DNA of 64,000 bases from Proteromonas lacertae (Eukaryota). The number at the start of each line of letters is the position of its first letter. Position 1 is the first letter of the stretch. The position numbers and the translations under genes were made by a program. The notes under the pieces were generated by a model that did not search any database, was not told where the DNA came from, and saw only the letters and a program-made list of their open reading frames with translations. Of the stretch, positions 1 to 64,000 are shown in pieces. The DNA is taken from positions 186,001-250,000 of the forward strand of contig NGBS01000584.1 in assembly GCA_002245135.1 (NCBI GenBank), written 5' to 3'.

Positions 1-860
1 ATGATATTGTTATCACAAGAATTATATAAGTATCCTTGTGTTGAAAAAATTAATATTAGGCAGAACAGTGATATTAATTCAAGTGGATGGAAAGCCATAT
101 TTTTAGTTTTTACAATTTCTAAAATCGAATTTGATTTTAATGGAAGTAAAGAATTACTGGTTGACAAAGATATTCCAGAATTCATCCAATACATCACAGA
201 TAAATATAATAGATTAAACCTGAGTTATTTAAAAATTGATGATGTTTTTCTCAAATCATTTTTCTTGTTAAGAGTAAATGAGTTTAGTGAAATTACAAAG
301 TTGGATTTGAGTAGTATAATTGAATGTTATTATATTATTATTATAGATAATAAATTGACATATAAAGGTATAGAAATATTGATAAACATTTTATCATCAT
401 TAAGTCTTGAATATCTTGAATTATCTGGAAATGAAATAGGAAATGAAGGTATGAAAATTTTATCTCCTCATTTGCATTTATTGAAAGATAATAATATTGA
501 AATGAATTGTTCAAGTATACCTGTAAATATAGTATAATGTGAAATAGATATGGGATTGTCTTGCAATGGATTAAAGTATATCATGAATTATGTTAAAGAA
601 AATGATAATATTGAAAAGCTTTTCATTCACAGTATCTTTAATATTATATTATCAATTACATAGGTAATCCAATCGGCAATGATGGATTTAAATTATTATT
701 ATATAAGTTAAATCTATTGATTAATGATTATCCAACATATGAAATGAATTTAGGTTACATTTATCCATTTATAGAAATGATTTGTTCATCATGGACTAAT
801 GAAGAATTGGATTATTATTTGAATTATTGCATAATAAAGAAAGAAAGACACAATGAATGA
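1..860 (+). CDS. LRR (RNI-like) protein, 3' part; 5' end lies outside the window
   Basis: LxLSGNEIGNEG and GNPIGNDG repeats; short GT-AG introns; stop TGA at 858-860; clear paralog of the 61932-64000 gene. Confidence 0.75.
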
Positions 861-1085: not shown

Positions 1086-2235
1086 TCAAACTTCTAAAAA
1101 CTTCACATCATCTGTTAATCTAGCTGTTCCATCACCAGCAATTACTCCACCAACAATCCATGCTGGACAATGATCAATCTCTTCAATCTCTTTTAAAAAT
1201 CCTTTTGAATCTTCTTCACTCATTGCAATTAGAAGTCCTCCTGACGTTTCAGCTGCTCTTCCTTTCACAAAATTATAACCAGGTGAAATAGCCGCAATCT
1301 AATATAATGAAATTTAATAATAATTACATAAAAATACTTTCAACATATTCTTAACAACAGGCATTGTGTGTATCTCAAATGTTACTTTTTCATTTTGAGT
1401 AGATGCTAGATTATTAGCATGACCAATAATTCCAAATCCAGTGACATCTGTACATGCATGTGAATGATATTTATGCATTAATAACGCACCAGTTCTGTTC
1501 AATCTTGACATACTTTTACATCCTTTTTCATAAGCTTCCATTATTTCTTCTTTTGATATTTTATCACTCACTGTTTCATATTTACCATTATGTGTCCATT
1601 CAAATCCATTTACTATCAATTGCATTCCCAATGGCTTTGTTAATATTAAAACATCGCCTGGAATAGCATAGATTGGCCTTAAGAAATCTACTCCTTCTTT
1701 ACATATACTCGTTGCTACTCCACCAATTAAAGGCCATTGATTCATTGTAGTTTGACCACCTGTTACTGTAGTACCTGCCTCTCTAGCTAAATCATTAAAT
1801 CCACGAATCATTTCAGTTGTTATTACATCTTTTTCTTTATCATCCATATCTACACTTACACCTAATATCATTAACATAGTGTCTATATCCACTACACCCA
1901 TTGCATACATATCTGATAAGACGTTACATGCTGCTATTCTTCCCTGCATATATGGATCATCAACCAGTGGGAAGAAATAATCGGTTGTTGAGATTAAATA
2001 GGTATCTGGTATTTTGGTTTTAACTACACTGCAATCCATACCTGGAGTTTCATTTGGTTTTATGTCATTACCTATATTTGTTAAGTACCCGAGTAATTTG
2101 TTTTGTGCCAACTTACAACCTCATCCCTTCCTCTATTTTGGATATAATAAAAATATATAATACTTTTGTAAATTTGGTTAAATGAAAATCTGATTTTAAA
2201 CCATGATCAACAGGATTCCATTTCCTGCCTTCCAT
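1086..2235 (-). CDS. SEPHS2: Selenophosphate synthetase 2 (SelD/SPS2), a selenoprotein
   Basis: ATG at 2235; introns 2133-2163 and 1299-1337. Spliced protein reads ...LTKFTKRKG-U(TGA 2121-2123)-GCKL, with TTDYFFP, GGQT, TDVTGFG and ETSGGLLI motifs. Confidence 0.95.
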
Positions 2236-2390: not shown

Positions 2391-3724
2391 TTAATTCTCT
2401 TCATCTTTTATATATATAGCCATTCCACTATTAGGATGTATTTGTAGGATTCTTTCTTTTGTTTCTTCAATATCTTTCAATTCATTTCCAAATATCCATA
2501 GATTACTTAAATTCTGACAATTATCTAATTCTTTAATCATATAATCCATTCCTTCATCAGTAATTTCACAATTTGCAATTGATAAAGATTCAAGTTTTGG
2601 TAGATTCTTTATATTTTCACTCAACTCTTTTATTGTTTTATTTCCTATCTTTATATTGGGAATGAATAATCCTCTCAATTTCTCTACATATTTCAAATTC
2701 TTGCTTAATTCAATTATACCTTCATCACCTACAGGATTATCTATATAAATAAATAACATAATATAAATATTTATATACTTTCAATTGATAATATATTTAA
2801 ATTTGGTATATCCTTCAAATGTTGACTTAATGAGATTAAACCTTTATCACCAATCTTGTTATCTGATAAATAAAGTGATTGAAGATTAGAAATATGATGT
2901 AAATTCTCACTAAATTCATACATTCCTTTATCAGTAATTTGATTTAAACCAATTTGAAAATGTTTCAGAATTGGTAAATTTATTAGATTTTCACTTATTG
3001 AAATCATACCATCATCTCCTATCTTATTAGCTATAATAATAATAATAATAATAATAATATAATTATACATGATAAATAGAGTGTTTGTAAATTGTTTATA
3101 TATCCAAATTTCTCACTTAATATGTTTACTCCTCTATCACCAATTTCATTTCCAATTGCAGAGAATACTCTAAGATTTGGTGTATATATTAAACTATTAC
3201 TTAACATTTGCATCCCTTTATCTGTTATTTTATTATCACCTATATCTAATAACAATAAATTCTCCTGATTGTATAATTTGTTGCAAAATTGTTCAAAACC
3301 AATATCATGAATGTCATTATCATTTATGTGGATTTGTTTTATTTGTTTCAATGTTGGTAACATATCACTGAGATATTCTAAACCAAAATCACCTATTTCT
3401 TTTTTTCTAAGGTTTAATATTCCTCCTTTCATTTGTTCATTTGCCATAGATGCTTTTTCTTCAATCATTGTTCCTATATTATAATGAACATACCAATACG
3501 TAAATTTGGTGGTAAAGGATGATAAATATTATAGTATGCTTCTCTTGGAATAGCTTTCATTGGATTTATATCAATATGAATTGGAGCTGGACCTTCTACA
3601 TAGGATCCTATACTTCTAAACTGAAATACACTGTCTATATGATTATATAAATAATATTACTTATTAAAAATCTATTATTATTTCTGGTAATGGGTAAAGT
3701 TTTAGAAAATACTCTATTTAGCAT
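2391..3724 (-). CDS. LRR (RNI-like) protein with possible mitochondrial/MRO presequence
   Basis: Many NxIGDxG repeats across the ORF fragments, joined by short introns; N-terminus MLNRVFSKTLPITRNNNRFL is basic and lacks acidic residues. Confidence 0.75.
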
Positions 3725-8946: not shown

Positions 8947-10679
8947 ATGAAATCTGTTATTATTTGTTTGATTCTCGTAGGTTTTTGTAGCTGTGCTACA
9001 ACTTATTTGAAACTGGGAGCTATTTTCCAAGATAATATGGTTTTACAAGTATATTTTCTCAATTAGTAAAATATAGAAAGAACCATATAGAGCACAGCTT
9101 TGGGGATATGCTAAACCACACTCTTATGTTTATGCTAGATTAGAAGGTGCTGATTATAGAGGAAGATCTGATGCTAATGGGTATATTTCATTAAATAATA
9201 CTTAGATTCTGGGTTATTACAATGGACCCACATAAACAAAACGATAGAGCTTATTCAATTCATATTAATTCAGGAGATGAATTAATTATTTTGAACAATG
9301 TATTGTTTGGAGATGTATGGATTTGTGCAGGACAATCTAACATGGAAATGAATATTGAAGTAGCTTATAACAAAACAAAGACATTTGAAGAAGGTGATGA
9401 CTATCAAACCTATCGATTAATGAGAATCATGTCAATCAAAAGAAAATGGTCTGATAAAGAAGAAAAAGATTTCCAACCAGAAGATATTCAATTACCATGG
9501 CAATATCCAACATCACAAGCTTTAGGAAAAGGTAGAACAGATGGATTTTCTTACTTTTCAGCAACATGTTTTCACTTTGGTAATTCATTATACCATCGTA
9601 CTTATGTGCCAATTGGATTAATATCTCTTTCATTTAGTTCAAGTACAATTGAAAGTTGGGTATCTCAAGATATATTCCCACTTGTATATTATTTAATTTT
9701 TATTTGTGTGTAGTGTAAAAATCCATACTTTCCTTCCAAAGTTCCATTTGAAAAACCATCAAGATTATACAATGCAATGATTAATCCTTTGATTCACACT
9801 ACAATAAAAGGAATGGTTTGGTATCAAGGTGAAAGCAATTATGCAAATCCAGGTGATTATAAAACAAATGATGGTTATGCTTGTTTCTTCCCCAAAATGA
9901 TTGAAGATTATAGAACAAAATTCTCAAAGAATTCAAACACTAATCCAAAATTCCCATTCGGATTTGTTCAATTAGCTGGATATTGTGATTCAAAGAATCA
10001 TACCTGTGATGGAAGAAATGAAAATATTGGTGATATTAGATATGCACAAACAGCTGATTATGGTTTTGCACCAAACCCAGCTATGCAAAATACATTCATG
10101 GCTGAAGCGTATATAACTAAATTTAATATTATCCTATTAATAATAGAATGGATTTACCTGATCCACTTGATACTGAACCAAAGTTTGGAGATTTACACCC
10201 AAGAAGTAAATTAGATGTTGGTATAAGATTAGCAAATGGAGCATTAAAATTTGTATTATTATATTCATTATATTTAATAGGCTTACAATGTAGATTGGGT
10301 TTCTTACACTGGTCCAGTGTTTGATTCTTGTGCAATTAGTGGTAAAGAACTACATATTCAATTTAATAAAGAATTATTAGGAAATGATGCAGTTAATGTT
10401 AAGAATGAAAGAGGTGTTGAAGTATATAGTAATAATAATTGGTTATCTGTTCCAATCATCAATCATTCTCAAACCAATATTACAATCAGCCTAGAAAATG
10501 CACCCAATCCAAGTATGGTAAGATATGCTTGGGCTAATAATCCATGTTGTCCTTTAGCATATCAATTTGAAAAACCTGTAAGATGTCCAAATTATCAATG
10601 TGCTCTTTACACTCAGAATGGAAATTTACCTACACCTCCATTCTTATCAAGTATTGTTAATGGAAGATGCTCAAATTAA
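8947..10679 (+). CDS. SIAE: Secreted sialate O-acetylesterase (SASA/SGNH hydrolase)
   Basis: Signal peptide MKSVIICLILVGFCSC; DNMVLQ, GDVWICAGQSNM (catalytic Ser), WYQGESN, DLHPRSK and VRYAW motifs. Confidence 0.9.
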
Positions 10680-10861: not shown

Positions 10862-13800
10862 ATGAAGAAGGAATATATATATGGAGTTGACATTGGATCT
10901 TATTACTTAGTTGTATCTAGAACAAAATACACAGACTCAGATGTTAATTTTCAAGTATTGTCAAACTCATTGGACAGAAGACTTACTAGGTATATTTTTA
11001 TAATATTTTCCTTATATAGAACATGCATATCATTCACTAAAGGGAAATTAAATCCAGTTGGCAAGACATTAGTATATATTTGATATTTGATTACTATAGA
11101 CAGCTAAAGATTTGCCAAATACAATAGTAAACGGAAAAGACTTTTTTGTAGACAAATTTGATTATGAAGAAGGTAAAATGAACTACTATCCATTTAATCT
11201 TCAATTAAACTCCTACAATCAACCTTGCTTTAAGGTATATGCAAAAATTTATATTAATATAGGTTAATTATATTGAAGATAACAGAGAATATAATCTAAA
11301 AGGGATTTATTTGTCATATTTTCATATAATTGAACAAATAATCGAGAATAAGGCAAATGAAGAAGAAAAGAGTATGATTCAAAACTGGATATTAGCTTAT
11401 CCTCCATATTATTCTAAAGAACAACAGAATAAATTGAGAATCTTGTGTAATTTTGAATTAAATGGAAATAATGTATTATGTGAAGAAGTAATAAGTGAAA
11501 GTTTAGCATATTCATTAAGTTTTGGATATGAGAATAATTCAAAATTTGAAAAAAACAGTTCAATTGTATTTTTAGTGGATATAGGATATCAATGTGCAAC
11601 AATTACATGTACAAAATATGAAAAAGTATATAATTGTTATAATGATAATGTTTGTTTAGGATAAATGTATAATATTAGGAAGTGTATATGATCAAAGCAT
11701 ATGTGGAAGAAAGATAGATGGAATGTTACTTGAATATGTTAGACATAAAGTTGAAAAAGATGAAACTTTTAAAGAAAATATTGATAAGATAAAGAATGAT
11801 AGATGTTGTGATTTTAGATTATTATCATCAATTATTTCTGTTAAAGAGAAATTGTCAGCTGATGGAGCTAGTTGTGTATTATATATATATATATATATAT
11901 AATAGATAAATCTAACTGTTTCTGATCTTTATAATTGTGAGGATTTTGAATGTAACTTTAGCAAAGATGAATTAAACGAAATACTTAAAAGTGCGAAATA
12001 TGAAGAGATGTTGAATAGTTTGTTGAATAAATGTATTGAGAATAGTAAAATTAAACCAGAAGAAGTATCAGAAATAGTGATTGCAGGTGGTACATGTAGA
12101 ATACCATATATTCAAAGCATATTAAAGGATTATTTAAACAAAAGGATGAAAAAGAAATGTGATTTAACCAAATCAATTAATATGGATGAACATATATCAA
12201 ATGGTTGTAATTATTATGGAATGATATTAGATGATAGATGGAATTATAGAGTTGAAATACAGAACAAAGAAATATCTAATGATTTACTTATTCTAAAAGA
12301 TAAAGATTCAAAACATATGACAATAAGAATAAGAGAGAATTTAGGAAAAACGATTCATACTTTATTTACTCCAAATAATGAAAAAATGCTTAGACAGACA
12401 ATTATCACTGAAATTGAGAATGAATGTAAGTTAGTAGTAGACGAAATAAGAGATTGTGAAAAATGTGATACATATAATTTCATATTAAAGAATATTGAAT
12501 TTAGTACAGATACATCAAAAGCAGATAAATTGAGAAATGATATAGAACAAAGAATATATGAGTATCAACGTGATTTAAACTTAATAACTGATAAGCAATA
12601 TGTTGAAATTCAACAGAAGTATTTGAAGGATGTAATAACAACTTTACACAATGATTTGGAATTGAAAATTTACAATAAAGCTCATGAATATGAGAAAGAG
12701 TTTAATCACAATTGGTTAAAGAGAAAAACAGATTTAAAAGAAGAATCAACTATCTATATGTATTTATTTAGATTAAATGTAATTACTTAGAGATATATTC
12801 ATATCAAATAATCCAAAATCAAATGGTAAGTATAATACTATCAAACAGAAAATAAAAGCAATAAATGAAGAGGAGATGAAATTATCTGAATGTTTCAATA
12901 TATGTAATGAAGTGTTAAGCAATAAAAAAGTATTGTTAGAAAAAATGAAAAATGAATTGTATAATTTGTATTAATATTTATATTAGGATAAAGTGTGTAA
13001 ATCCTATGAGAAAACATCAAAAAATTGTAAAAGAAATGCACCTAACATTATACGACAGAATAGAAGAAGCATTGAAAATAGTAAAAATAGATAATATACC
13101 ACTTGAATCATTGAAAAGGCTAAATAAACTTTATGAACTATATGTGAAGAATATATACGCAAAATTCAGTACAAGAATATTAATATTGAAGTATATATCT
13201 AATAATAGTGTTATTCTGTTTAATAGAAAAGATATAAATAAAGATTATGAAGAATGTATAAAAGTAAAATTTCAGAAACTTGATTTGAAAGAGTTAAAAA
13301 GTTTAATAGACAATTTAAATATATTATCAGAAAGTCCAAAAGATTATGATAAGAGACTAGAAGAATTATTAGAGAATTTCCAGAAGTTATATGAAGAATA
13401 TAATAACAGAATTAAAGAATACAGAAAGAAAATATTTACATTTAGAAGTAGAATGACTAATGAAATCAATATATTGAATCCAAAACCACCATATTTAGAA
13501 GATGTTATAAAGAAAACAGAAGAAATAGAATTTCCAGAAGAAAATTCAAAACAAACAAATAATGGCGATAATGATGATGATGATGATAGTAAAGAAGAGT
13601 CAAAGTATATACTATTTATGTTAGCTAAAGGAAATGAAAAAATGAGAAGATATTACACAGATGGATTAAATAAGTTTAAACTAGAGTTTGAAGTATATAT
13701 TTTGATATATTATTAATAATTAGGAAAAAAAGAAGGAATTAATCCAAGAAGTGATAGATAATCAATCAATCTTTTCATTACCAGGATTATTAGACGAAAT

Positions 13801-20734: not shown

Positions 20735-23700
20735 ATGTTTACAGCCGCTGCAGCTGCTGCAAGGAATAAAGCAAATTTTGACCAACCAAATTCTAAGTCA
20801 AGAATAAGTCGTATTATTAGTTTTGAGTTTATTTTTTAATTTATAGTTAAAAGAGCAGGAGAAGGATTAGAAGATACATCTGTGATAATCAACCCTATTT
20901 ATGGATATCAAAAAAGAGTTAAACATCCTCGGAAGTCCATTTCAGGAAGAGAAAGGTCTTCTTCCATGTCGTCCCTTTCAGGTGATGATAGTGAATCTAG
21001 GATATATATAAAACGTTATTATAAATTCACAATAAATCCAAATGTTACTTACAAACTATTGTGGGATGCTCTTGTTGCAGTAATCGTCATTTATTCAATT
21101 ATAATGGTTCCCCTACAACTGGCATTTTCTACAGCGTCAGATGGAGCATTTGTAGTTATTGATTGGATTGTAGATGGTCTATTTATGGTAGATATTATTA
21201 TTAATTTCTTTACTGCATATAATGACAGTAGAGGAACAGTATATAGTAATTGTATGATAGTAAAACATTATTTTAAAACATGGTTTATAATTGATTTAGT
21301 TTCAACTATTCCTTTTGATAAAATATTTTGTATATTCTATTTATTTTATTAATAATAATGATTATAATAGCATCAGCATCATCAGCTCTAAAACTAATGA
21401 GGTTATTAAAAGCCTTAAGATTATTAAAACTGTTGAAATTATTTCGAGTGTTGAAGTTATCAAGATATATTGATACAATTAAAGAAAGCTTTCCAGGAAA
21501 TGATACACTATTTACTTTACTCACATTTTCAGTCACTTTGACATTAGCAGGTCATTTAATGGCATGTTTATGGTATGGGACTATATCAATGGATTCTAAT
21601 AATGATTTAAATTGGATTCATTTATCTGAAGATATTGATCTAGATAATACAGGAAAACAGTATGTTGTTTCATTATATTGGGCTTTTACTACGTATATTT
21701 GTATATATTATATTATTATAATTAGTATGACAACTGTTGGTTTTGGTGATATAGTCGCTGAGAGTATAAGTGAGAAGATAGTAGCTTCAATATGTATGGT
21801 TATTGGAGCAGCTGTATTAGGTTATGTATTAGGAAATATATCAAGTTTATTACAAGATTATAATTTAATTGATGTAGCTAGGAAAAAACAAATGGAAAGG
21901 CTAAAGAATTATTGTGTATATTATTATATATATTATTATTATTATGTGTAAATAGTATGACAGAAATGTTCCAACAAATCTAAGAAAAAGGTTAGAAGCA
22001 CATCAAAAATACAGTCAAAGAATCAAATCAGTAATTGATGAAGATGATTTATTGAATAAATTTCCTTCTAGAGATCATATTGGATTAATATATAAAGAAT
22101 ATAGTCAAATAATTGAAGATGTTCGAGTATTAAAAGAATTTTATAATTACACTGCTGTTTGTCAGTTTGTTCATGTCATTTATCCATTTTATGCAATTAA
22201 AGGAGAGTTTATTATGTTAAGAGGTGAAATTGCTTATCAAATATACGTATTAAGAAGTGGCAAATTGTATTATGGTTTACCAGTTAATGGTAAAATAGAT
22301 CCTAAAAAGTCACATATTGTCACATCAGTGATGGGTGAAATGCCAAAGTACGAATTCTTTGGTAAAGATGCATTGAATGAACATGAGAGTATTTACTCAT
22401 ATAATATATTATGTGAAGTAAAGAGTGAGCTATTATTTGCTAGAAATGTTGATGTTTTACCAATGATTAATACTTATCCATATCTAAGGGATAATATGTT
22501 CAAATATGAAGTGAAAATAATGAATAAATTATCAAAAACAGCGTATTATTTTGTTATTAATTATATTATGTAGGAGAATTGAAGGTACTGGACAACTGTC
22601 ATCATCGCAAATAATAAGACCAAAAGAATCATCACGTTTTGCAACTCCAATAGTATTAGGAAGATCAATTCGAGATAGATTATCTAATAGTAATAGACAG
22701 TATTTAGATTCACCTGATCATAGTCCAGTTGATATTCTATTAGATAATAAGAAAAAACAATATTCAAAAGAGTTAGCTCCACCACCATTTGAACCAATTA
22801 CAACCCAAGAAAAGAAGGAAGAGAATAAAGAAAAAGTGGAAGAGAATAGAGAGAGTCAACCAACAGTAGAACAACAAACTAAGCAAAATACATTCACAAA
22901 TACCACTACAACAACCACAAATAATTATTACAATAATCCATTAGAATCAGTGAATAACAATGACGCTAATGAATTTGATATAGATGATGATGATGATATT
23001 GATAATAATACAATTACCTTTATAAAGAATGTCAGAAATAGTAAAGCAAGTGAAAGAGCATCAACAACATCCAATAGAACCTCAATAATATCACAAGAAT
23101 CATCATTTAGAGCATTTAAGAAACATCATTATGTTATTTATCCTTATCATCCATTCAAAATCATTTGGGATTTATATATAGCTGTATTAATCTTGTACAG
23201 TGTTATTGAAGTTCCTTTTGTAATAGCATTTGAAGTAAAACTACCAGAAGGTTTACACATATTTGATTTATATATTATAACCATATCATTTGTTATTGAT
23301 ATGATATTATCCTTTAATACTGGATTGATTAATTCATTTGATGCTCCAAATTATAAAAGAAAAGATATATGTAAATCATATTTAAAGTTCTGGTTTTGGA
23401 TTGATTTAATATCAACTATTCCATTTGATGAATTATTTGTTACTACTAGTGGTGGATTGAAAGCAATAAAATTAGTAAAAGTAATACGTCTAATTCGATT
23501 AGTAAGGTTAATTCGTCTTTTAAAACTTGATAAAATAATGCAGAAATATGATGATTATATTAACCCAACCGCAATTCAAATCATTAAACAGTTATTTATA
23601 ATGTTATTTATTGCTCATTTAGTTGGTTGTTTATGGTATGGAGTTTCTGCTTATTCTATAACTGAAGAAGATCCAGATAGCAACTGGATAAGTGGTTATT

Positions 23701-24717
23701 GTGTATATCAAAATGCTTCAGATTATTCAGATTGTTTACCATTAAAAAATGAAACTTTAGGTATTAAATACCTAACTTCAATATATTTTTCTTTTGCTTT
23801 AATGGGTACTGTTGGTTATGGAGATATACACGCTAATCATTTGAATATAGCTGAAATGTTAGTTAGTTGTTTTCTATTGGTCGTTGGTACAACAACAATG
23901 TCATATTTAATCTCCAGTGTAATGGGTTTAGTTCTGAATGTCAATCCTGGTAAAGCAATAAGAAGTGATAAATTGAGATTAATTAATGGATATAGTGATG
24001 ATATTGGATTGTCAGATGATATGACTAAGAGATTGAAGAAAATAAGTGATTATACTTTGACAATGCAAAGTGGATTTGATACTGATAATTTATTCAGAAA
24101 TTTCCCAAATTTATTAAAAGAGGAAGTGATTAGAAATATCAACTGATCCAATAGTATCAACTTTTAGCATATTGAATGAATTAGAACAAGCGTTTCCTGG
24201 CTTTGTTTCTTATATTTGGCCTTTATTTCGATGTTATCAAGCTTTACCAAATGATTATTTGTGGAAAACAGGTGAAGATATAAATGAATTGTATTTCATA
24301 TTTCATGGACAATTACGAGTTAGTAAAATGGATGGTCAAACTACGTTGATCAATATTGGATCAATATTAGGAGAAGCAGCTATGTTGATTCCGTTGAGTG
24401 TGTATTGCATCAATTGTAGTGATTGTCAAGCTGTAATAACAAGCCAGATATTATCACTACAAAGAAATCAATTAGATTATATTAAAGGTGTTAGTCATGA
24501 AGTATATAATCAAATGAAACTCAAATTGTTGCATAATATTGAAGTTGAACAACCAATTTATATAGATCCTGTAAATATAGATGATGAAATTAGAGATATG
24601 CATTTGTGTATTGAGAGTTATTGCCCTCCTAGAAGCACACACGAATTTTTGACTGATGTAAATATAACTAATATAACTGAAGGGGAAGATGTAAATAAGA
24701 ATAATAATAAGAAATAG
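20735..24717 (+). CDS. Cyclic-nucleotide-binding-domain K+ channel with two tandem 6TM-pore-CNBD repeats
   Basis: Two S4 segments (RLLKALRLLK; RLIRLVRLIRLLK), two pores (TTVGFGD; GTVGYGD), two C-linker/CNBD regions; a +1 frame break at about 24140. Confidence 0.85.
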
Positions 24718-25009: not shown

Positions 25010-26446
25010 ATGAAGATTATTTATCTATTTTTCATTATTTTGTCTTTAAGTTCTGTTAAGGCTTTAGATGACACATTAAATATGTATTTTGATTTGGAAG
25101 GAGTAGTTCCTGGTTTTCAAACTGAACTACATATTATGAATGCAGGCAGATTCAACTCTGAAGTAGCAAGATTTGCAAACAGTATTGCAATACCAGCAAA
25201 TGTTTCAAGATGCAAACTGAGATGGCATGCAGGTGAAGGTAAAGGCACTACTTATAAAGCTAAAGTTATAGCAGATCAGCCAGAAAATTTAGGTGTTGCT
25301 TTAGATATACCCTCAAAAGGTAGTGTTACAACCTACGTACAAGAGTATAGTAATTACTCATTATTTTGATAGATTTTTTATTTATTTCACTTGCCATCAG
25401 TTAGGAACATATAAAATGACATTGAAACTTCAATTTTTTAATAAAGATGGAACAGAAGAATATGAAGGATTTGAAATTTACCCAAGTCACATATGTTCGC
25501 AAATAGGTATTGTGATTGTTATTTTATTTTATGTATAGATTATGATCCTTGTACTTATTATCATGATTCAATCCCAGCTAAAAAGAGATCTACAATAGAA
25601 TTTACAAGTGTTAATCTTCAACCTTATGATGTTGATACAATTGAAAGATTTAAGACTATTTATGAAAATTTATATAGTAGTACTACAGTATTATCCATTC
25701 AAGGAGCTACAAGTGATGTAAGAGAACAACTTACAAAAACTGTTTTAAATACATATAAATATAGAATTCCCTATCCACATAAAAAGGATGAAGAACAATC
25801 TGCACCACTTTATTTGATGAGTGCAAATCCAATTTATACTTGTAATTATTTTGAATTTGATGAAAATCATGAATATGGTGCTGTTATTGCTGGTATAGCG
25901 ATGGGTGAAAATAGAATTGCATTTGTGATTAATGCTTTATTTCCTCCACTTGTAGAAGATAATTATGAAGCAGTAATAAAACAAGTTACAGAAGAATTAG
26001 ATAATAGCAGTTAACTGCTTTTATGGAAGATCATCCAAAATATTTTGTTGATGGCTACTTTATGGGTGATGTGAATTTTGATACTGATTTTGAAACTACA
26101 TTTATGAAAGAATTAAATTCTACAATTGGAGAAACTATAGGCACAAATCATCCTGGAAATGGTTTAGTATTAGGATATTATAAGAAAACAACTAATACTA
26201 CAGTTACTTCATATCAGACAAAAACGTATATATAAGCATAATATTATTACATCTTATAGAATTGGAAATAAAAATTATACATATGATGAAGGTTATTTTA
26301 TTGGTGCAGTAAAGGATGGTGCTCTTGTAACAAAAATAAGTTTGGGACAAGATCCAGTACCTGATGATACTAGTGATTCTGCTAGTGATTTATTCAGTTT
26401 AATGTGTTTAATCTTGTCATTCATTTCTATTTTAATAATTATGTAA
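25010..26446 (+). CDS. Signal peptide + WIF-like domain + degenerate EEP domain + C-terminal hydrophobic (GPI-like) signal
   Basis: Introns 25345-25372, 25507-25538 and 26226-26259, plus a frame break or atypical intron near 26010; C-terminus SDSASDLFSLMCLILSFISILIIM*. Confidence 0.8.
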
Positions 26447-26526: not shown

Positions 26527-27941
26527 TTACAAACAAAATGTTTTATAATAATGAATTAAATTTGATTGAGAATGAATGAACAAAGATAAAACTTCTCTCT
26601 TTTTTGATTTATTACTAATTTTCCAACAACGATTCCTGAAATTCATTATACTATTTCATATATTAAATCATATAAAATAAATACTCTGTTGGTAATTCAT
26701 AATTTATTACAATATCACAATCTAAATTAACATTTAACATTGAATCTGTTGTTATTATAGTTGATGGTTGATTTGAAAAAATACTATTCAATACTAAAAC
26801 TCTCTTTTCCTATTAATATAATAATATTATTATACATTCAATCCTGGACAATAAAGAACATTCTCAACTTTATTCTTAGTTAAATAATTATGAAGGAATG
26901 TTGAAGATCTACTAGAGTTACAGAAAATCACTATTTTATTATCCTTACTATTCATTCTCACAAATTTAAGACATTCTTCTAACTGAGAGTGATAATTAAC
27001 AATCTTAAAACAGTAATTTATTGATGAAGGAAAAAGAAGATTGTTTACTTTTTTATCACTTATACAATCCACTATCTTTAAATCTGGAATGAATTTGTTA
27101 TATAAATCAATAATAAAAGGGTTGATAGTATCAGTTGTGAATAGTAATTGAAATAACCTTTGATTCTAATGATGTTATATGAATGTAAATATAAATTGAT
27201 AATACTTTTGGATAATCAGTATAATTCTTATAATCTTTACCAGCATCTTGAATAATATTCAATATTTCATTTCTATTTTCACTGTTAGTAATCATAGTGT
27301 GACTATTTACAATAATATTGTGTGTTTTATTTAAATTAACAACTCCATCTTTAATTAAATAACTCAAATATGAAGGAATTGATAATAAAATATCTATTCT
27401 TTTTGTTGATTTTAACTGTAGCTTTGTTTCTTTTATTTGTTGATTTGGATTTAATACAGTTATATTATATCTTGTTCTATCATAATATTGTTTGTAATAA
27501 CTATATGTCTGACAAAGTGATTCTAAAGAAGGTTCTAAACATAATATTAACGGTTCTCTTATATTTCTTTTTGGAAATAACATTGTATTCTCTTTTGCAT
27601 TTTTCTCTAGATTTAACATTCTTGAACTTTCTAATAAAGACAATAACTCTATTCCTGTTTGAGGTAATGATGAACATAATAAATTGTGATTATCTAGAAT
27701 CTATTTATATTAATAGTAATGATGAAAAATACATAAGGTACTGAATTGTTTTGAATGGCAGTTGCATTTTCTGAATAAATAGAAAATTTCTTAATATTGT
27801 CACTATATTGGTTAGGTAAATTCAGTTTTGTTATAATATCTGTTATTTTAGTACTTAATCGTCTTAATGACTACAACAAAATAGATATAAATGTACCATA
27901 TTCATTAAAATGCAAGAATTATTTATCTTACATGGAAACAT
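26527..27941 (-). CDS. Degenerate DEAD-box-like (two RecA domains) protein, possibly organelle-targeted
   Basis: ILCLEPSLESLCQ (motif Ia-like), DILLSIPSYL (Ib), KIVIFCNS (IV), IITTD and VINYELP (V); no DEAD or Walker A motif seen. Confidence 0.55.
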
Positions 27942-43045: not shown

Positions 43046-46000
43046 ATGCACAAGACGGACTCTTTTGTATATAATATTATCTTTATAATTATCATTTTAA
43101 TCAATTAATGTCATTTTATAGCCATTACGTCCTACATCTGGTTTATTAGCTCCAATACGTTTCAAAAAATCTCTAAGCATGGAACAGCAGAGTTCGGGTT
43201 GGTATCAAAACGAAAATATCGAATTCACAAAATCTAATTCATGTATCTATAATAATATTGCTTATTGTTTTTTCTAGTATCCTCTTCTGCATCAGAAGGT
43301 GCTATTCCTGGATATAGAACAGTATTTCCTCTATTGTTATATTACAATATAGAACTTAACTTCCACTAATCTTGGTAATACTGGTATTAAGCTTACAAGT
43401 TATAATTTACCATCAGATAGCCCAAGAAGAATTCATCATGTAGAACCACTTGGTCAAAAAACATTTACACCTGCTTTATCACCAGTGGGAGAACCATCTG
43501 ATTCTGTATATAATGTAATAGAATCATCCACTGATGAGATGGAATTGAGACAAACCCTGTCAAACGTATATTTATATTTATAATAATAATAATAATAATT
43601 ATATATTATATAGCTTGATAAAGATTCTATTATAAATTTATTTATTTCCTCTAAATTACACGCTAAACAATACAAAGATGTTCAAAAATCAGTTACTTCA
43701 ATATCAATTGCAGATAATATAGACAATATATTGGACTCTTTTTTCAGATATTCCAAGCAAATCTTAAAATGTCAAGATATCAAGTTTTATGTTCCAAATC
43801 CCGATAATTCAGGTTCAATAATTGATTATACCACCAAACAGATAGTTCCATATGATGAAGGTATTATTGGCGAAGTATTACAGAATTCATCTGCCAAAGC
43901 TGTAGAAAATGTCCAATCAAAATCACAGTATAAAGACTATGAAGATAGTAAAGTGAATTCAATATTATGTGTTCCAGCTTATGATTATAAACAGAGATTA
44001 ATATGTATTGGTAAAGCAATAAATAAAAACAACAATGCTCCATTTAATGAAGATGACGAAAGATCATTTTTGATATTATTATTGACAACTGGTAATAATT
44101 TCAAGAGAGCAATGTTATTAGAGAGATTAAAGTCAGCACAAGAATCAACAACTTCTGCATTAAAAATTACACAAGTATTATCGTCCTCTATAAATTATGA
44201 AGAAATCATTCGAGATATTATTAATGTATTATTATTATATATTTTATATATTGAAATAGATCACTAAAGAGATTGTACAATGTAAATTTTTCCGTCTTTT
44301 ATTAGTTGAAGGTTCAGAATTAGTAGATTACACTTCCAGTATTTATTTTTATTTTTTTATTTTTCTTGTAGATTTTCGTAAAAGTATTGAAGGTTCGTTA
44401 TCTGGAGAATGTATAAAAACATCACATGTTATTACAATTGGTGATTTCAGTAGTATAAAACCTGAGAAGTTAATGAAAGAAATTGATACTATTCAACCAA
44501 ATGAATTGATTAATATGTTGTGTGTTCCTATACTAGATCAAGATAATCGTATAAATATAATTATAATGTATTATTAAATAGATAATCCAGTTGCTGTACT
44601 TGAAGCTTATAATCATAATTATGGTCAATTTACTAAAGAAGAAGAGAATTTATTGCAGTATATAGCAGATACAGCAAGTGTACAGTTTCACCATTCAAAA
44701 TTACATAAACAAGCGATGGTACAAGAGAAGATGAATAGGGGATTAGTACAAATAATGAAAATAGTTTCACAAACAGATGATGTATACATAATAATAATAA
44801 TAATAATAATAATTAATAGAAAGATGATATATTTACATCATTGAATAAACTGGTAGAGATTGGTTATGATGGTGTTGATTGTGAAAGAATTACTGTGTTT
44901 CTATTAGATGCAAATACACATACATTACATACAAAGTATAAAAATATATATATACAATAACGTTTTATAGAATATCAAGAGATTTAGATCCAAATTATCA
45001 TTTACCATTAAACAACAGTATAGCAGGATGTTGTATTGCATCAAAACAGACAATCAATATATCAAATGCATATAATGATAATAGATTCAATAAAGCATTT
45101 GATAAAGAAACAGGTTTTCAGACAAAATCAATAATCGCATTGTGTTTAACTGATGCAGCAGGTAATCCAATTGGTGTTTTAGAAGCAGTGAATAAGAAAG
45201 GAATTCATCAACGATTTGATGATGATGATATATTACTGCTAAACACTTTAGCCACTGAAATTAGTAATTTCCTAAGAAAAAGAGCAATGGAATTAGCCTA
45301 TGAAGTTCATTCATTACATAGCAACAACCAAAGTTCAAAGTTTATTCAAAGTCTCTTATCTCAATATAGTGAAGTAACAACTCCAATATCTCCTCAACCA
45401 GTTTTATCAACCACTACATTACTCCCAAAACAAATCAGTTTGATGAATCATAGTAATGAAATAGCAAGTAAAATAGAGAGTTGGGCATTTAACTCATTAG
45501 AATATGAACCTGATCAATTGTTTCCATTTATTAAATACTGTTTTGATTCATATGATTTATTTCATCAATGGAATATAGATCAGAATAAATTTTTCAATTT
45601 CATTAAAGTTGTACAATCTAATTATTTTGATAATCCTTATCATAATTATTTTCATGCAATGGGAGTGTTTCATATATGTTTTATGTTTTTAAAGAAAGCT
45701 GAAGCTGTAAAAGGAATAACTGCAATTGATGTATATATATAAATTATCATTTATAATTATATTTATTGAATAGACATTGGCTTTATTACTTAGTGCAATT
45801 GTCCATGATATTGATCATCCAGGACATAATAATGATTATGAAATTAAACTAGGAAGTACATTAAGCATATTATACAATGACCAATCAGTATTAGAAAATC
45901 ACCATTGTGCTTTAACATTCCAATTAATGAGAGATAATAGTTGTGCATTATTATTATCACTAAGTTATAATGATTATAGACTATTAAGAAAAGGAATGAT

Positions 46001-46523
46001 TCAAGCAATATTAGCTACAGATATGGTTCATCATAATGAGTATATAAAATATGTGGAAGATTTTGTTCCAAAACCAAATTCAAATCCAATTTCATCAATT
46101 GGTATGAATAATAATAATAAAAATATTGATGAAGAAGAATCTAGAAAATTAATAGCAACCATTATTCATGCTGCTGATTTGAGTAATCCAGTAGTTCCTT
46201 CATTTGATGTTTGTAGAGATTGGTCTATAAGAATATGTACAGAGTTTTCAAATCAGTTTAATCATGAGAAAGAGAATAATTTACCAATATCTTATCATAT
46301 GCAAATAGATGTTAATAATGATAGTGCTGTTGCTGCATTTCAGTTGAGTTTTATTGATTTTGTTATTAGACCTCTGTGGAATCCGTTAGTGACAAAGATA
46401 TATCCATTAGCTAATGAATTGATTGGTTTTTTGAATAATAATTATAAGAGATGGAAAGAATTAGCAAATAAGAATAGTCGAGTGATTCAAATACTACAGA
46501 TTCAAAAAACAATAAATAAATAA
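43046..46523 (+). CDS. Class I cyclic-nucleotide phosphodiesterase with three GAF domains
   Basis: GAF motifs SILCVP...AINK...FNEDDE, MLCVP...FTKEEE and DNRFNKAFDKETGF...AVNK; catalytic YHNYFH, HDIDHPGHNN, LENHH, ILATDM and HAADLSN. Confidence 0.93.
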
Positions 46524-49150: not shown

Positions 49151-50375
49151 CTAATTTTTAATAACACTATTTCTAGGGGTTGGGATAAATGTCCAAGGTA
49201 TATAACTAGAAGAATCAAAATCTTCTTCAACTGGATCCATCTTACTCTCAGTCCTTTGATTTCGTGTATTTTCCAACTATATTAAAAGATATAATATAAT
49301 AATATATATACATCTTGTAGTGTCATATTAATTTCTACTTTACTAACACCAATTTTCTGTACAATCCATTGTCTTTCAATTGCAGACAAACTTCCTTCTT
49401 TCTCATATCTTTTGTTATCCAAATGTTCTGGGTTATTCTGTTTAGATTCTTCATATTCTTCAATTTCAAAACTTTCCTCTTTATTTATATCCCATCCTAA
49501 TCCAACAGGAACACCTCCTCGTAACGGTACACTTGTTGGCGCAATATTACTCTTATATTCTCTTATATTTATCTTATTCCATTTAATATGAGGTTTTTGT
49601 TTATTTTCTGACTTTTTCACTGTTATTTCCTCAACTATTTCAACATTATCATTGTCTATCTCATTTTTAAATGTGAAATTTTCATCTACTGAATTATCAC
49701 TGTTCTTAGTTGATAATAAATCATTAATTTTCACATGATTTCTAGGGGTTGGAATAGTGGTAGTAACATGACATGAATTGGGTCTATATCTATCAATACT
49801 CTGCATAGAAGCAGAATTTGACTTAGGAGAGTCTATTGGAGATGGAATATCTAAAACTGATTCTGAATGACACATTTTCAGTGTTTTCGAATTATTTATA
49901 GGAAGTAAAAGACGAGGAGGAGCTATATAAATGAATTTATGTAAATAATACTCACTAATTTCTTTTTTAATGCTGAAATGTGTAATTGTTTATCATCTAT
50001 TGGATCTTCAACATGCTTTCGCATTGTTCTGGATACTATACCTGGACTCATAGAATATGACCTATTCACAAGCTTTCTTTGTTCTGACAGAGGTGAAGGC
50101 ATATATGAAGATGATTGAGTTGTTGGAATAATTACACTACTTTTCATATCACCAGCTCCAATTGAATCTATATCGTCATTATCTGAAAAATCTAAATATT
50201 CTGTTTTTCTGTTTGACATTTTCGGTATATTTGGAGCTGATACAGTGTTCTGATTTTTAATTAAGGAAAAAGATATATCTAACAGATTAGAATAGAATTC
50301 GATACTACAAACACCCACTTTGGGATTTGTATTGAAATTTTGACGTTTTGAACTTTTTGTTTGGGAGTTTTTCAT
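49151..50375 (-). CDS. Ser-rich protein with CSRNP_N-like block (paralog 1)
   Basis: IKWNKINIREY...SVPLRGGVPVGLGW...FEIEEYE; ATG at 50373-50375, stop at 49151-49153. Confidence 0.65.
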
Positions 50376-50539: not shown

Positions 50540-50781
50540 TCACTTGAAAACATTATAAGCTTTATGCAAAATTACATTACTCATTGCTGGTGGAGCAATT
50601 CTGATTGGAGTATAATTAGAAGAAATATTTACTCTTCTACGATTATCAATAGAACTTTCTACTCTTTGTTTTCTTGTGTAATTGACATTTTTGACAGTGA
50701 AATTAATAAGAGATGGAGGTGTGCCAATTCTGTTTAAGATTCGCATCCTTTCATTTGGTGGTATAAATCCATTCTATTTAC

Positions 50782-50816
<35 letters not shown>

Positions 50817-51583
50817 TACTCTTTGATAATTCTTAATGTCAGTGTATTCTGGATCTTTCTCTTTATACTCTTCATATTCATCCAATTTATATTCCTCTTC
50901 TTTTACAATACTCCAACTCAATCCAATTGGCAAACTATCATTTGTAGGAATAGATGTTGATGAAATGGAAGTTTTATATTCTCTTATTTTTACATTACTC
51001 CAAGAAACATGCAATTCTGATTTATCTGGATACTTTATATTAACTTCTGTCTTTGCAGGACTATCTTTAACTTTAAATGACATATTTGACATTTGTATTA
51101 CAGCTTCTGTCTCTTCATTACTCTCTTCTTCTGATTCATTTCTTTCATTACTATTTTCAATTTCATTACTACTTCCATTATCTTGGCTTGAACTACTTCT
51201 ACTGCTAGTCGATGAAAATGAATTTTCATGAAGACTATTTTTAGATAATAAACTATTAGACGATTTTCTTAATTGAACTGTTTTTGTATTTAAAAAATTA
51301 CTTTTACTTTTCATTTGTGGTTTGTGTATCAATTTCATATTTGTATTTGAGAAACATTTAGGAAGAATGCAACTACTTTTTACTAGTCCTAATAACAATT
51401 CATAAATTAAACGAAAATACTCTGTTTTACTCTTGGCAAATATCGTTTATGTGTGTATATTTCATCTTCTGAGTCACTACTAGATGAAGATGAGTCAGAA
51501 TATGAACTGCTGCTATATGACGAACTATCTTCTGAACCAGAAGAGCAAAAGCTTCCTCTGTTCAATTTAGGCAAAAAACTCAT
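50540..51583 (-). CDS. Ser-rich protein with CSRNP_N-like block (paralog 2)
   Basis: VSWSNVKIREY...SIPTNDSLPIGLSW...YKLDEYE; two short introns. Confidence 0.65.
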
Positions 51584-56943: not shown

Positions 56944-57542
56944 TTAAAATAAATCTTCTTTGATAAGTGGCAGTGTTATAGATAAAGTGTGATTTCTATT
57001 ATCAAATTGTGCTTTTCCTTCTTTGTCATTAACTTTATGTGGTAGAAATAGTTTTAAATAATAATCCTTTGTTGAAACTAACAATCTAGTTTGATTCACA
57101 TCACTTTCTATATCTTCTGTTTTGCAATCTGGCAATTTTACTTTTATTACCATCCAATTACATGATGATATTGATGGAGTAACATCATCATCCAATCCAA
57201 AATAAACATCTTCAGCTGAAACATTCTGTTTATATATTATATCATATCTAAAATAAATGAATAATTACATTTAAATACTCTGGCTGTATTCTATCGTCAT
57301 TTTCGTTATCACTATCAACTCCAAAATCAGGAACTTCTTCTACAGTCCATATTGCTTTTGGATCTGTTTTAGTCTGTGGTTCTTCTTGTACTGCCGGAGC
57401 AGCAGGGCCAATTGCAGCTGGTGTGAATTCTTTGTCTGGTCTTTCTTCCTACTGATATTAAAAGCGTTATTTATACATCACTGTCTTCATCTGGATGAAG
57501 CAAATTATTTAGTTCAACAATATTAATCCCCAAACTATCCAT
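56944..57542 (-). CDS. PIH1D3: PIH1D3/DNAAF6 (Twister) axonemal dynein assembly factor homolog
   Basis: Spliced TPAAIGP...AIWTVEEVP...DDRIQPEYDIIYKQNVSAEDVYFG...PSISSC...IKVKLP followed by a CS domain. Confidence 0.82.
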
Positions 57543-61931: not shown

Positions 61932-64000
61932 TCATTCACAGTTAACGAAAGTTTTTGACAATTCTATCCTTTCTTCTTCTGATATTCCATCTAGATTTAT
62001 TCTTCCAATTGATGAGAAAGTTTGTAAGAATGATTTTAATTCTAATTTATCTATATCTTCTTTTAAAAATATTGACATTTCTTCTAAACAATCAAACACT
62101 TCTTTGTTTTCTTTCATTAATCTCAATTCATTTTCATTTAATTCATTTCCTAATAAATTTATCTCTTCTAATTGTTTGTAATCTTTTAATCTTTCTATTA
62201 ACAATTTTAATCCCTTTTCACTCATTCTAATATCTATTCGGATTATAGAATATATATAATACTCGAAAGATTCAATATTATGGGAAAACAATCTTCATCC
62301 ATTTGAACAAATTTATCTAAATATTTACATATTATCTTCACTCCTTCATCTCCGATGTTATTATTATGAATTGATATATATTTTACATCTTCTGGTAAAG
62401 AATCTGTTAATTTTTTTAATCCTTTAGAAGTAATTCTATTGTTGGATAAATCTAGCGTTTTATATTCGATCTGTCTTATTAATGACATATGAGAATCATT
62501 AATATTCATATCTATTTCATAATAATTAATAATTTTTATACTTGAAAAATCATACTCACTTTCCCAACTTTTCCTTTCCTTTTTTGAACAATAATACAAA
62601 TAATGTTCCAATTCTTTACTTGTCCATGTTGAACATTTCAATTCAATAAATGGATAGTTTTCATCCTCTAACGACTTACAACAAATAGCTTTTAATCCTT
62701 TAAAACTTTCATTATTCCCACTTAATTTTATTGTACTACATCCTCTAATTGAATTTATTTCTTTCGTTAATAACATAATACTTTCATCATCTATTGACAT
62801 ATTACTCAAATTCATTTCACTCTCGTCTTTCACTAATATATTCAAAATATCCAGTATCAGTTTAAATCCATTATTACCAATAGGATTATCTATTTTCAAA
62901 TATTACATATAGCAATATATATACTGTGAATACATAATTGTCCTATATTGTTTTCTTCTTTCATATATTTCATCAAATATTCAATTCCATCTGAATCTAT
63001 ATTATTGCCACTTATATCTAGCATTATATTTTTGGTGATATTATTTAAACCATCTAACAAATATCTCAATCCAACAGAAGATAATCCCATTTCTCTAAAA
63101 CTACAATCGATATATTTATTTGAATAATTCATTGTATAATTATTTATTAAATGTAAATATGGAGATAATGTTTTCATTCCTTCATCTCCTATCTGATTTC
63201 CATTAACCATAAGCTCTTTTAGATTTGTAAACGAAGATATATTGTTGATCATTATTTCTATACTTTCTTGAGTTAGTTTATTATCTAAATAATATTAAAA
63301 AGACAATCTATACTACTCAATTTTAACTCTTTTACATCTTTTAATTCATTTGATCTAAACGAAATGAACGATTTGAAAAAATCATCATCAATTTCAGAAT
63401 TATTCAGGTTTAAGCATTCAATATACTTGATTAATTCTGGAATACTTTTATCAATTAGTAATTCTCTACTCCCATTATAATCAAATTCTATTCTTGAAAT
63501 GCTAAACACCGAGAATAAGGCTTTTAATCCCTTTGAATGAATATTCTTGTTGTTTTTAATATCTATTTGATAAACATATCCATATTTATATAATTCTTCA
63601 GATAATAACACCATCGATTCATCATTTAAGTTCATTCCATATAGATTTAATATTTTTTCTCTGTCTACTAATAAATGCAAATGTGGAAGTAACAGTTTAA
63701 ATCCTTTTGGGCCAATTCTATTGCCTATTTCATTATAATTAAAAATAGTGTAATAAATACATGAAAAATCAAGGATTTTTAATTTCATCAACGGGATTGA
63801 CTTGACAAATGATTCAATAAAGTGAAATGTTAAATGACATTTCCACACATCTATTTCTTGTAAATCTGTGAATTGACATATATAAGAACCTAATAAATAA
63901 TGATATTGAATAGGTATAGTGTTATATTCATAATCTAAATAAATAAAAGTATCTAAAAATCATACTAAATCTGAGCTTTGTAGGATTTGTTAGTTTTAGT
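61932..64000 (-). CDS. LRR (RNI-like) protein; 5' end outside the window
   Basis: GNRIGPKG, GNQIGDEG and NNNIGDEG repeats; paralog of the 1-860 gene. Confidence 0.78.

Follow-up and report, generated by a model that had tools for sequence, protein, structure and literature searches.

Wnt-inhibitory factor (WIF) domains are treated as an animal, cnidarian-bilaterian innovation, and a match to one in a 64-kb stretch of Proteromonas lacertae DNA (the whole stretch analysed, hereafter the window) raises the question of whether the domain is genuine, whether the gene belongs to the protist and what its product might bind. The preliminary description of this locus had quoted a string of WIF motifs, and each of these occurs, in the sequence given, on the + strand at 25076-25502 (residues 23-155) after removal of an intron at 25345-25372. 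The whole gene runs from ATG to TAA (26444-26446) at 25010..26446 on the + strand, according to a spliced model and its alignment with the homolog P0008, and encodes a protein of 435-447 amino acids, the length being set by the reading of its third junction. The predicted product is a surface protein in which a signal peptide, the WIF domain, an EEP-fold domain and a hydrophobic tail follow one another. The earlier gene description captured the WIF part but missed the EEP-fold domain, which makes up most of the protein, and a frame break near 26010.

Identity and relatives of the WIF domain

The domain covers residues ~21-155 (25070..25502, + strand; Pfam PF02019 and family profile) and is interrupted by intron 1. 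In the HMMER comparison proposed in the preliminary description, exon 1 alone matched the Pfam WIF model (PF02019/IPR003306) with E 5.7e-6 and 26.6 bits, above the cut-off of 25, over model positions 11-85 of 131, and PF02019 was the sole Pfam family to match it up to E 10. Exon 2 alone gave no Pfam match; on an independent profile, built from three homologs with the window rows left out, it scored 31.8 bits. On the same profile the spliced WIF domain reached 108 bits and 1000 shuffles at most 9.2. Two homologs match PF02019 through its last model position (P0009, E 9e-14; P0008, E 3.2e-6); those exceeding its gathering cut-off score 51.8, 31.8 and 27.4 bits, P0022 and P0023 stay under the cut-off and P0001 has no Pfam match. 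Conversely, a profile made from protist-type sequences only retrieved eight PDB sequences at E <= 10, the first six of which are Drl-2 and human WIF1, two of them at E < 0.001. Its best match is the RYK/Derailed-type Drl-2 (PDB 7me5, E 1.2e-5), with which the family has in common the Gly, Phe, Pro, Trp, Tyr, Gly-x-Val and Cys positions and a predicted membrane-tethered extracellular WIF. Human WIF1 follows at E 3.4e-4 to 0.029 (WIF1/Shifted; PDB 2d3j, 2ygn-2ygq), chain residues 7-138 being aligned at E 3.4e-4. A single-sequence search of the PDB with exon 1 found no WIF. With exon 1 above the Pfam cut-off and the protist-only profile retrieving Drl-2 and WIF1, the WIF identity asserted at the outset is borne out.

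Both cysteines of the predicted disulfide named earlier also hold up. Cys119 (25392..25394, + strand) is aligned with a Cys of WIF1 and Drl-2, and Cys153 (25494..25496, + strand) is the inferred second member of the pair, aligning with C160 of P0008 and C155 of P0009, at which the Pfam WIF matches of these two homologs end. Three further cysteines, Cys68 (25211), Cys161 (25550) and Cys258, are common to P0008 (C71, C168 and C266), and going by this conservation could provide an extra disulfide. Searched with a single-sequence fold of exon 1 (pLDDT 48.9), Foldseek ranked WIF structures 1, 3, 4, 5 and 7, the best of them at E 0.74, which is not significant; a wide structure search with the same low-confidence fold gave no WIF among the best 50 rows. 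The order of secondary-structure elements fits WIF in a low-confidence model (pLDDT 40-49).

Overall, we regard homology of the window domain to WIF as close to certain. Chance resemblance or animal contamination might be read into the 1.6 bits by which exon 1 exceeds the Pfam cut-off and into the relatives that fall below it or go unmatched, but this explanation is largely refuted by the score of P0009, the reciprocal PDB matches, native introns and GC3 (G+C content at third codon positions), five independent clusters of relatives and protist-type neighbouring genes, and we consider it very improbable.

These relatives were gathered in two ways. Searched with phmmer, 1.84 billion representatives yielded 11 matches at E <= 0.001, of which three are true relatives (P0001, P0008 and P0009). 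The other eight are multi-stretch proteins and were set aside as unrelated; six of them were scanned with Pfam and carry no WIF, P0002 and P0004 being the two outside that scan. A profile search contributed P0022 and P0023 (4 of 1098 candidates confirmed). The five resulting clusters, with 2, 6, 5, 1 and 7 members, all come from Logan. Their WIF domains are 60-62% identical to that of the window in P0001, P0022 and P0023 and 32-34% in P0008 and P0009, and the protist WIF subfamilies are mutually 28-37% identical. The family is thus divergent, and the two-domain layout of WIF and EEP also occurs in the intact homolog P0008. Members of the P0008 cluster (P0008, P0013-P0017) are full homologs of 451 amino acids. 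On their Logan contigs, 1.5-7.1 kb long, they were called as intron-free, so that in some related organism or paralog the WIF gene seems to have no introns at all; by eye, variants within this cluster diverge most in the WIF domain.

No animal WIF came within the phmmer threshold (E <= 0.001, 1.84 billion representatives), and for this reason absence from other protists cannot be concluded. Word-indexed searches confirmed none of 173 candidates for exon 1 against longer proteins and, with P0008, retrieved only P0008 itself of 5313. In two scans of JGI metagenomes none of 220 and none of 258 pattern matches was confirmed, nor was any of 164 in viral contigs; phage records gave no match, and NCBIfam returned nothing relevant for the window protein. 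The one match among 40 in prokaryote genomes (L001) was rejected as chance: it sits in an ORF that, by its motifs, we take to be a short-chain dehydrogenase, in a genome without a WIF match. The controls of this prokaryote search were silent, so that it does not demonstrate absence.

Gene structure and the EEP-fold domain

The three introns, at 25345..25372 (intron 1, 28 nt, splitting the WIF domain), 25507..25538 (intron 2) and 26226..26259 (34 nt), lie on the + strand, are short and are all of the GT-AG type. Splicing of introns 1 and 2 is established by the spliced model and by comparison with homologs; in P0001, P0022 and P0023 the reading continues into an intron located at the intron 1 site. 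Homology backs the last intron weakly, since identity in the C-terminal alignment is just 20%. With these junctions, residues 10-332 of the spliced gene model align with P0008 (blastp E ~1e-46). The window has 27% GC, short introns and the standard code; a ciliate genetic code was considered and is not required, as the standard code suffices.

At 26005..26012 (+ strand), comparison with P0008 exposes a frame break, which could be either a purine-rich intron of 23-38 nt or a single-base indel arising from an assembly error or a lesion. Read with an X and no intron, the segment has 69 residues against 69 in P0008 and aligns without gaps, whereas the intron readings introduce 8-12 gaps; the alignment scores are close (67 without and 64-66 with an intron). 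Purines make up 69-71% of the short candidate introns, four in number, compared with 41-50% of the three accepted introns. Directly upstream of the WIF gene lie tandem genes for channels of the cyclic-nucleotide-gated type (20840-22570 and 22524-24714, + strand). The second (Ion_trans E 4.8e-24, cNMP E 3.5e-6) also changes frame, at 24130-24147, where no short intron fits and bridging would need introns of 64-196 nt with mostly poor splice sites; here too an assembly indel is probable. This similar frame change points to assembly indels, and the break near 26010 is likely one of them, with a short in-frame intron as the possible alternative. That the window copy is instead a pseudogene broken near 26010, in a family functional elsewhere, would agree with the preference of the homolog length for a single-base indel over an intron. 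We consider this quite unlikely, because the frames on either side of the break are open and conserved, the neighbouring channel gene points to the assembly, and an intron could still restore the frame.

The EEP-fold (DNase I-like, sphingomyelinase-like) domain with a degenerate active site was placed at 25592..26360 (+ strand, end approximate) by homology to P0008 and a structural model. In this region the window protein and P0008 are 30% identical over 163 aligned residues. At the sequence level P0008 matches PF03372 (Exo_endo_phos) with E 0.0037, below the cut-off; the EEP exons of the window gene itself drew no Pfam match to EEP, and sequence searches of the PDB brought up no EEP relative. 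An AlphaFold model of the intact P0008 (451 amino acids), made from 11 rows with pLDDT 40.0, was compared over residues 179-402. The best three Foldseek rows were sphingomyelinases, at E 2.2e-5 (nSMase2) to 1.2e-4 and 18-20% identity. In VIA, the sphingomyelinase matches had Z 10.9-12.2, the best being human neutral sphingomyelinase (Z 12.2, rmsd 3.5, 185 aligned); TDP2 tied with it at Z 11.7, which leaves a sphingomyelinase ancestry unproven. Judging by title or family, we take the best 38 VIA rows all to be of the EEP fold, and a viral library returned viral EEP proteins at E 8.6e-6. From this model, the second domain very probably adopts an EEP fold, resembling neutral sphingomyelinases and sphingomyelinase C (PDB 8j2f, 5uvg, 7cne; PF03372) in the fold of P0008 and in strand motifs.

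Unlike active sphingomyelinases, this domain is fused to a WIF domain and has apparently lost its metal-binding Glu together with other catalytic residues. At what we take, from family motifs, to be the Glu site, the window protein and P0008 both have Gly. By the same presumed motifs the window domain keeps the Asn and Asp-x-Asn and has seemingly lost both His sites, while P0008 has retained no more than one Asn and the last His. That the two proteins have lost different residues suggests relaxed catalysis. Human nSMase1 needs each of N15, E49, D178 and H272, according to the available part of PMC10682184. Judged by these residues, the domain has in all likelihood lost catalysis.

The surface-protein layout proposed earlier was recovered by hydropathy. 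A predicted signal peptide occupies residues 1-18 (25010..25063, + strand; hydropathy peak at residues 2-17, cleavage site inferred), and the gene ends in a polar spacer and an 18-residue hydrophobic C-terminus without a cytosolic tail, resembling a GPI signal (26363..26443, + strand). P0008 likewise has an N-terminal hydrophobic stretch, a polar spacer and a terminal hydrophobic tail. The window protein is acidic and bears glycosylation sites, and surface anchoring with a GPI-like layout is probable.

Candidate ligands

The available part of bioRxiv 2021.04.29.442059 describes WIF1 as holding DPPC via two inserts, one of six residues ahead of alpha-2 and one of four residues in beta-9, the latter a proline insert, and Drl-2's WIF domain as cavity-less; it also reports that DWnt-5 binding is abolished when Drl Tyr52, Phe56 or Val58 is changed to Glu. 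The counterpart of this Wnt contact in the window is the helix alpha-2/beta-3 region (25160..25186, + strand), located by Drl-2 alignment and family survey, where Glu51, Phe55 and Ile59 align with Drl-2 Tyr57, Phe61 and Val63 in a register that a two-residue insert beside alpha-2 leaves slightly uncertain. Phe55 does not vary in any of the 12 sequences, and position 59 stays Ile or Leu. In contrast, the contact tyrosine (Drl Tyr52/Drl-2 Tyr57) is replaced in all 12 protist sequences: the window has Glu, and each of the 11 homologs has Gln, Asp, Glu or Val. Across alpha-2, the span from Gly to Pro is 16 in six of six protist sequences, compared with 14 in Drl-2 and 20 in WIF1. This indicates that four of the six inserted residues that help open the DPPC pocket in WIF1 are missing, and two are extra relative to Drl-2. 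The cavity measures about 1500 cubic angstroms in WIF1 and 77 in Drl-2.

The surroundings of the domain differ from both animal types. Like WIF1, the protist protein carries its WIF directly after the signal peptide, but it lacks the five EGF repeats of WIF1/Shifted; an EEP-fold domain stands after the WIF instead, with a predicted C-terminal anchor. Unlike RYK/Derailed, it has no transmembrane helix and tyrosine pseudokinase and ends at the hydrophobic tail, and unlike Drl-2 its WIF, with the two extra alpha-2 residues, leads into the EEP domain in an organism that is not an animal.

The explanation that we prefer overall, with a probability of roughly 40%, is a native, spliced surface protein in which a WIF and an inactive EEP domain bind lipid. 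The two domains would form a non-catalytic lipid-binding receptor, predicted to be GPI-anchored, on the coat of the gut flagellate, and would hold choline lipids (phosphatidylcholine, sphingomyelin) from the mucus or membranes of the host, serving adhesion or scavenging; the enzyme half would have decayed into a binding platform. Lipid binding by the window protein is a tentative analogy, favoured only because the solved relatives of both domains handle choline lipids: WIF1 holds DPPC and nSMases cleave sphingomyelin. Against it, the alpha-2 insert is short and the family scores better against the cavity-less Drl-2 than against WIF1. The same two observations lend themselves to a generic surface-coat or adhesion protein, in which a cavity-less RYK-like WIF would serve as a protein-binding module or spacer, the dead EEP domain as scaffold, and the ligand would be a host or microbial protein or glycan. 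The divergence among WIF subfamilies, the six copies in P. lacertae and the acidic, GPI-like layout with its glycosylation sites would suit such a protein. It leaves unexplained that both domains have phospholipid-handling relatives, and we judge it somewhat unlikely.

The preliminary description had offered either a decoy for host Wnt or a lipid binder. The lipid half remains plausible and is helped by the sphingomyelinase-like partner, but the decoy has been weakened. As a decoy, the WIF would capture Wnt or Hedgehog of the host at the surface of the gut, dampening or redirecting epithelial signalling. This reading can draw on Phe55 and Ile/Leu59, which match two of the three residues that Drl needs for DWnt-5 binding, on Glu39, which in the window copy aligns with Drl-2 Asp45, and on the obligate animal-gut commensalism of Opalinata (stated in the accessible part of PMC12129017). 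However, Glu39 is not conserved across the family, and the third essential position is Glu51 in the window, the very substitution (Y52E) that abolishes binding, and non-aromatic in the 11 homologs. The EGF repeats that WIF1 requires for full activity are absent, and Wg is not inhibited by the WIF domain of Shifted (PMC3285576 and PMC6292148, in the parts available). The replaced Tyr, the missing repeats and the Shifted precedent together make a Wnt decoy improbable. Less probable still is its extended form, in which a host-captured family of WIF and dead sphingomyelinase decoys would bind lipid-modified Wnt or Hedgehog and tune signalling in the gut epithelium. The fusion to a decayed sphingomyelinase-like domain offers a Wnt-free setting for asking whether lipid handling is basic to WIF, and the protein is a candidate for host interaction in poorly studied gut commensals.

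Native status and origin

The gene is native, as the preliminary description had argued from its short introns: its three introns are short and of the GT-AG type, its GC3 resembles that of the host, and its relatives form five clusters. GC3 of the WIF exons (0.18-0.19) falls within that of eight other ORFs in the window (0.14-0.26). The occurrence of WIF in P. lacertae is already on record as an uncommented count, six domains, in Supplemental Table S5 of PMC12129017 (2025), in a comparison of ten stramenopile genomes; the accessible main text mentions neither WIF nor Wnt. These six predictions, known as a count only, represent the same domain and probably the same family. The table gives no WIF domain for Cafeteria or for any of eight Blastocystis, and lists seven sphingomyelinase C/SMPD2-like domains in P. 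lacertae compared with 0-1 in the other nine genomes; these seven possibly overlap the six WIF proteins. Among titles and the beginnings of abstracts, with most subscription papers outside this scope, we found no discussion of non-animal WIF domains and no report of a fusion between WIF and a sphingomyelinase. What is new here is an architecture and a lineage for a known domain: as far as our searches reach, the combination of WIF, dead EEP and GPI-like tail and its family are undescribed.

Published WIF distributions favour an animal origin, which makes transfer from an animal host the simpler reading. In the available part of PMC3091302, the gain of WIF is placed at Bilateria_Cnidaria among 114 genomes including 16 chromalveolates, an assignment taken from the order of headings (the block preceding 'Caenorhabditis'). 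PMC2959043, in the part available, calls WIF a probable bilaterian novelty. A search of 12 of the 16 supplementary files of PMC6040629 found no WIF. An ancestor of gut protists would have taken the domain from its animal host and fused it to a secreted sphingomyelinase-type enzyme, after which the family would have expanded; we consider acquisition from the host reasonably probable. Alternatively, WIF may predate animals, having descended vertically in opalinatans and been lost or become unrecognisable elsewhere. Deep divergence within the protist family would fit this, and a phmmer search that missed animal WIFs would let distant protist WIFs escape too. Yet the zero counts in Cafeteria and the eight Blastocystis and the gain inferred at Bilateria and Cnidaria run counter to it, and it would require many losses, so that we hold it rather unlikely. 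The WIF tree built here contains protist rows only. A diversified native family in gut protists implies either that a developmental-signalling module passed, in a rare event, from an animal to a protist, or that the domain is older than supposed.

Downstream of the WIF gene, a gene at 26833-27700 (- strand) had two weak matches, one DEAD-like at E 0.014 and the other rhodanese/phosphatase-like at E 0.0013. Farther away, the window holds genes for a sialate O-acetylesterase (9195-10676, + strand), a cyclic-nucleotide phosphodiesterase (PDEase; 45774-46520, + strand) and a PIH1-CS protein (56947-57264, - strand). In the accessible data of PMC12129017, PDEase and PIH1-CS are absent from all eight Blastocystis and the esterase from Cafeteria, and P. 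lacertae alone among the ten genomes has all three. Within this set of genomes, the gene content of the window makes a Proteromonas-like opalinatan host probable. Leucine-rich-repeat genes stand at both ends of the window (1-534; 2394-3528, - strand; 61935-63959, - strand), and two neighbouring ORFs (49285-49989 and 50781-51446, both - strand) have a common C-terminal motif and look like tandem paralogs. A gene with AIRS domains at 1317-2120 (- strand) is, by its motifs, presumably selenophosphate-synthetase-like. The gene at 11263-12787 (+ strand) is Hsp70-like but divergent, with a partial match to PF00012 at E 1.5e-12, and long coiled-coil ORFs come after it.
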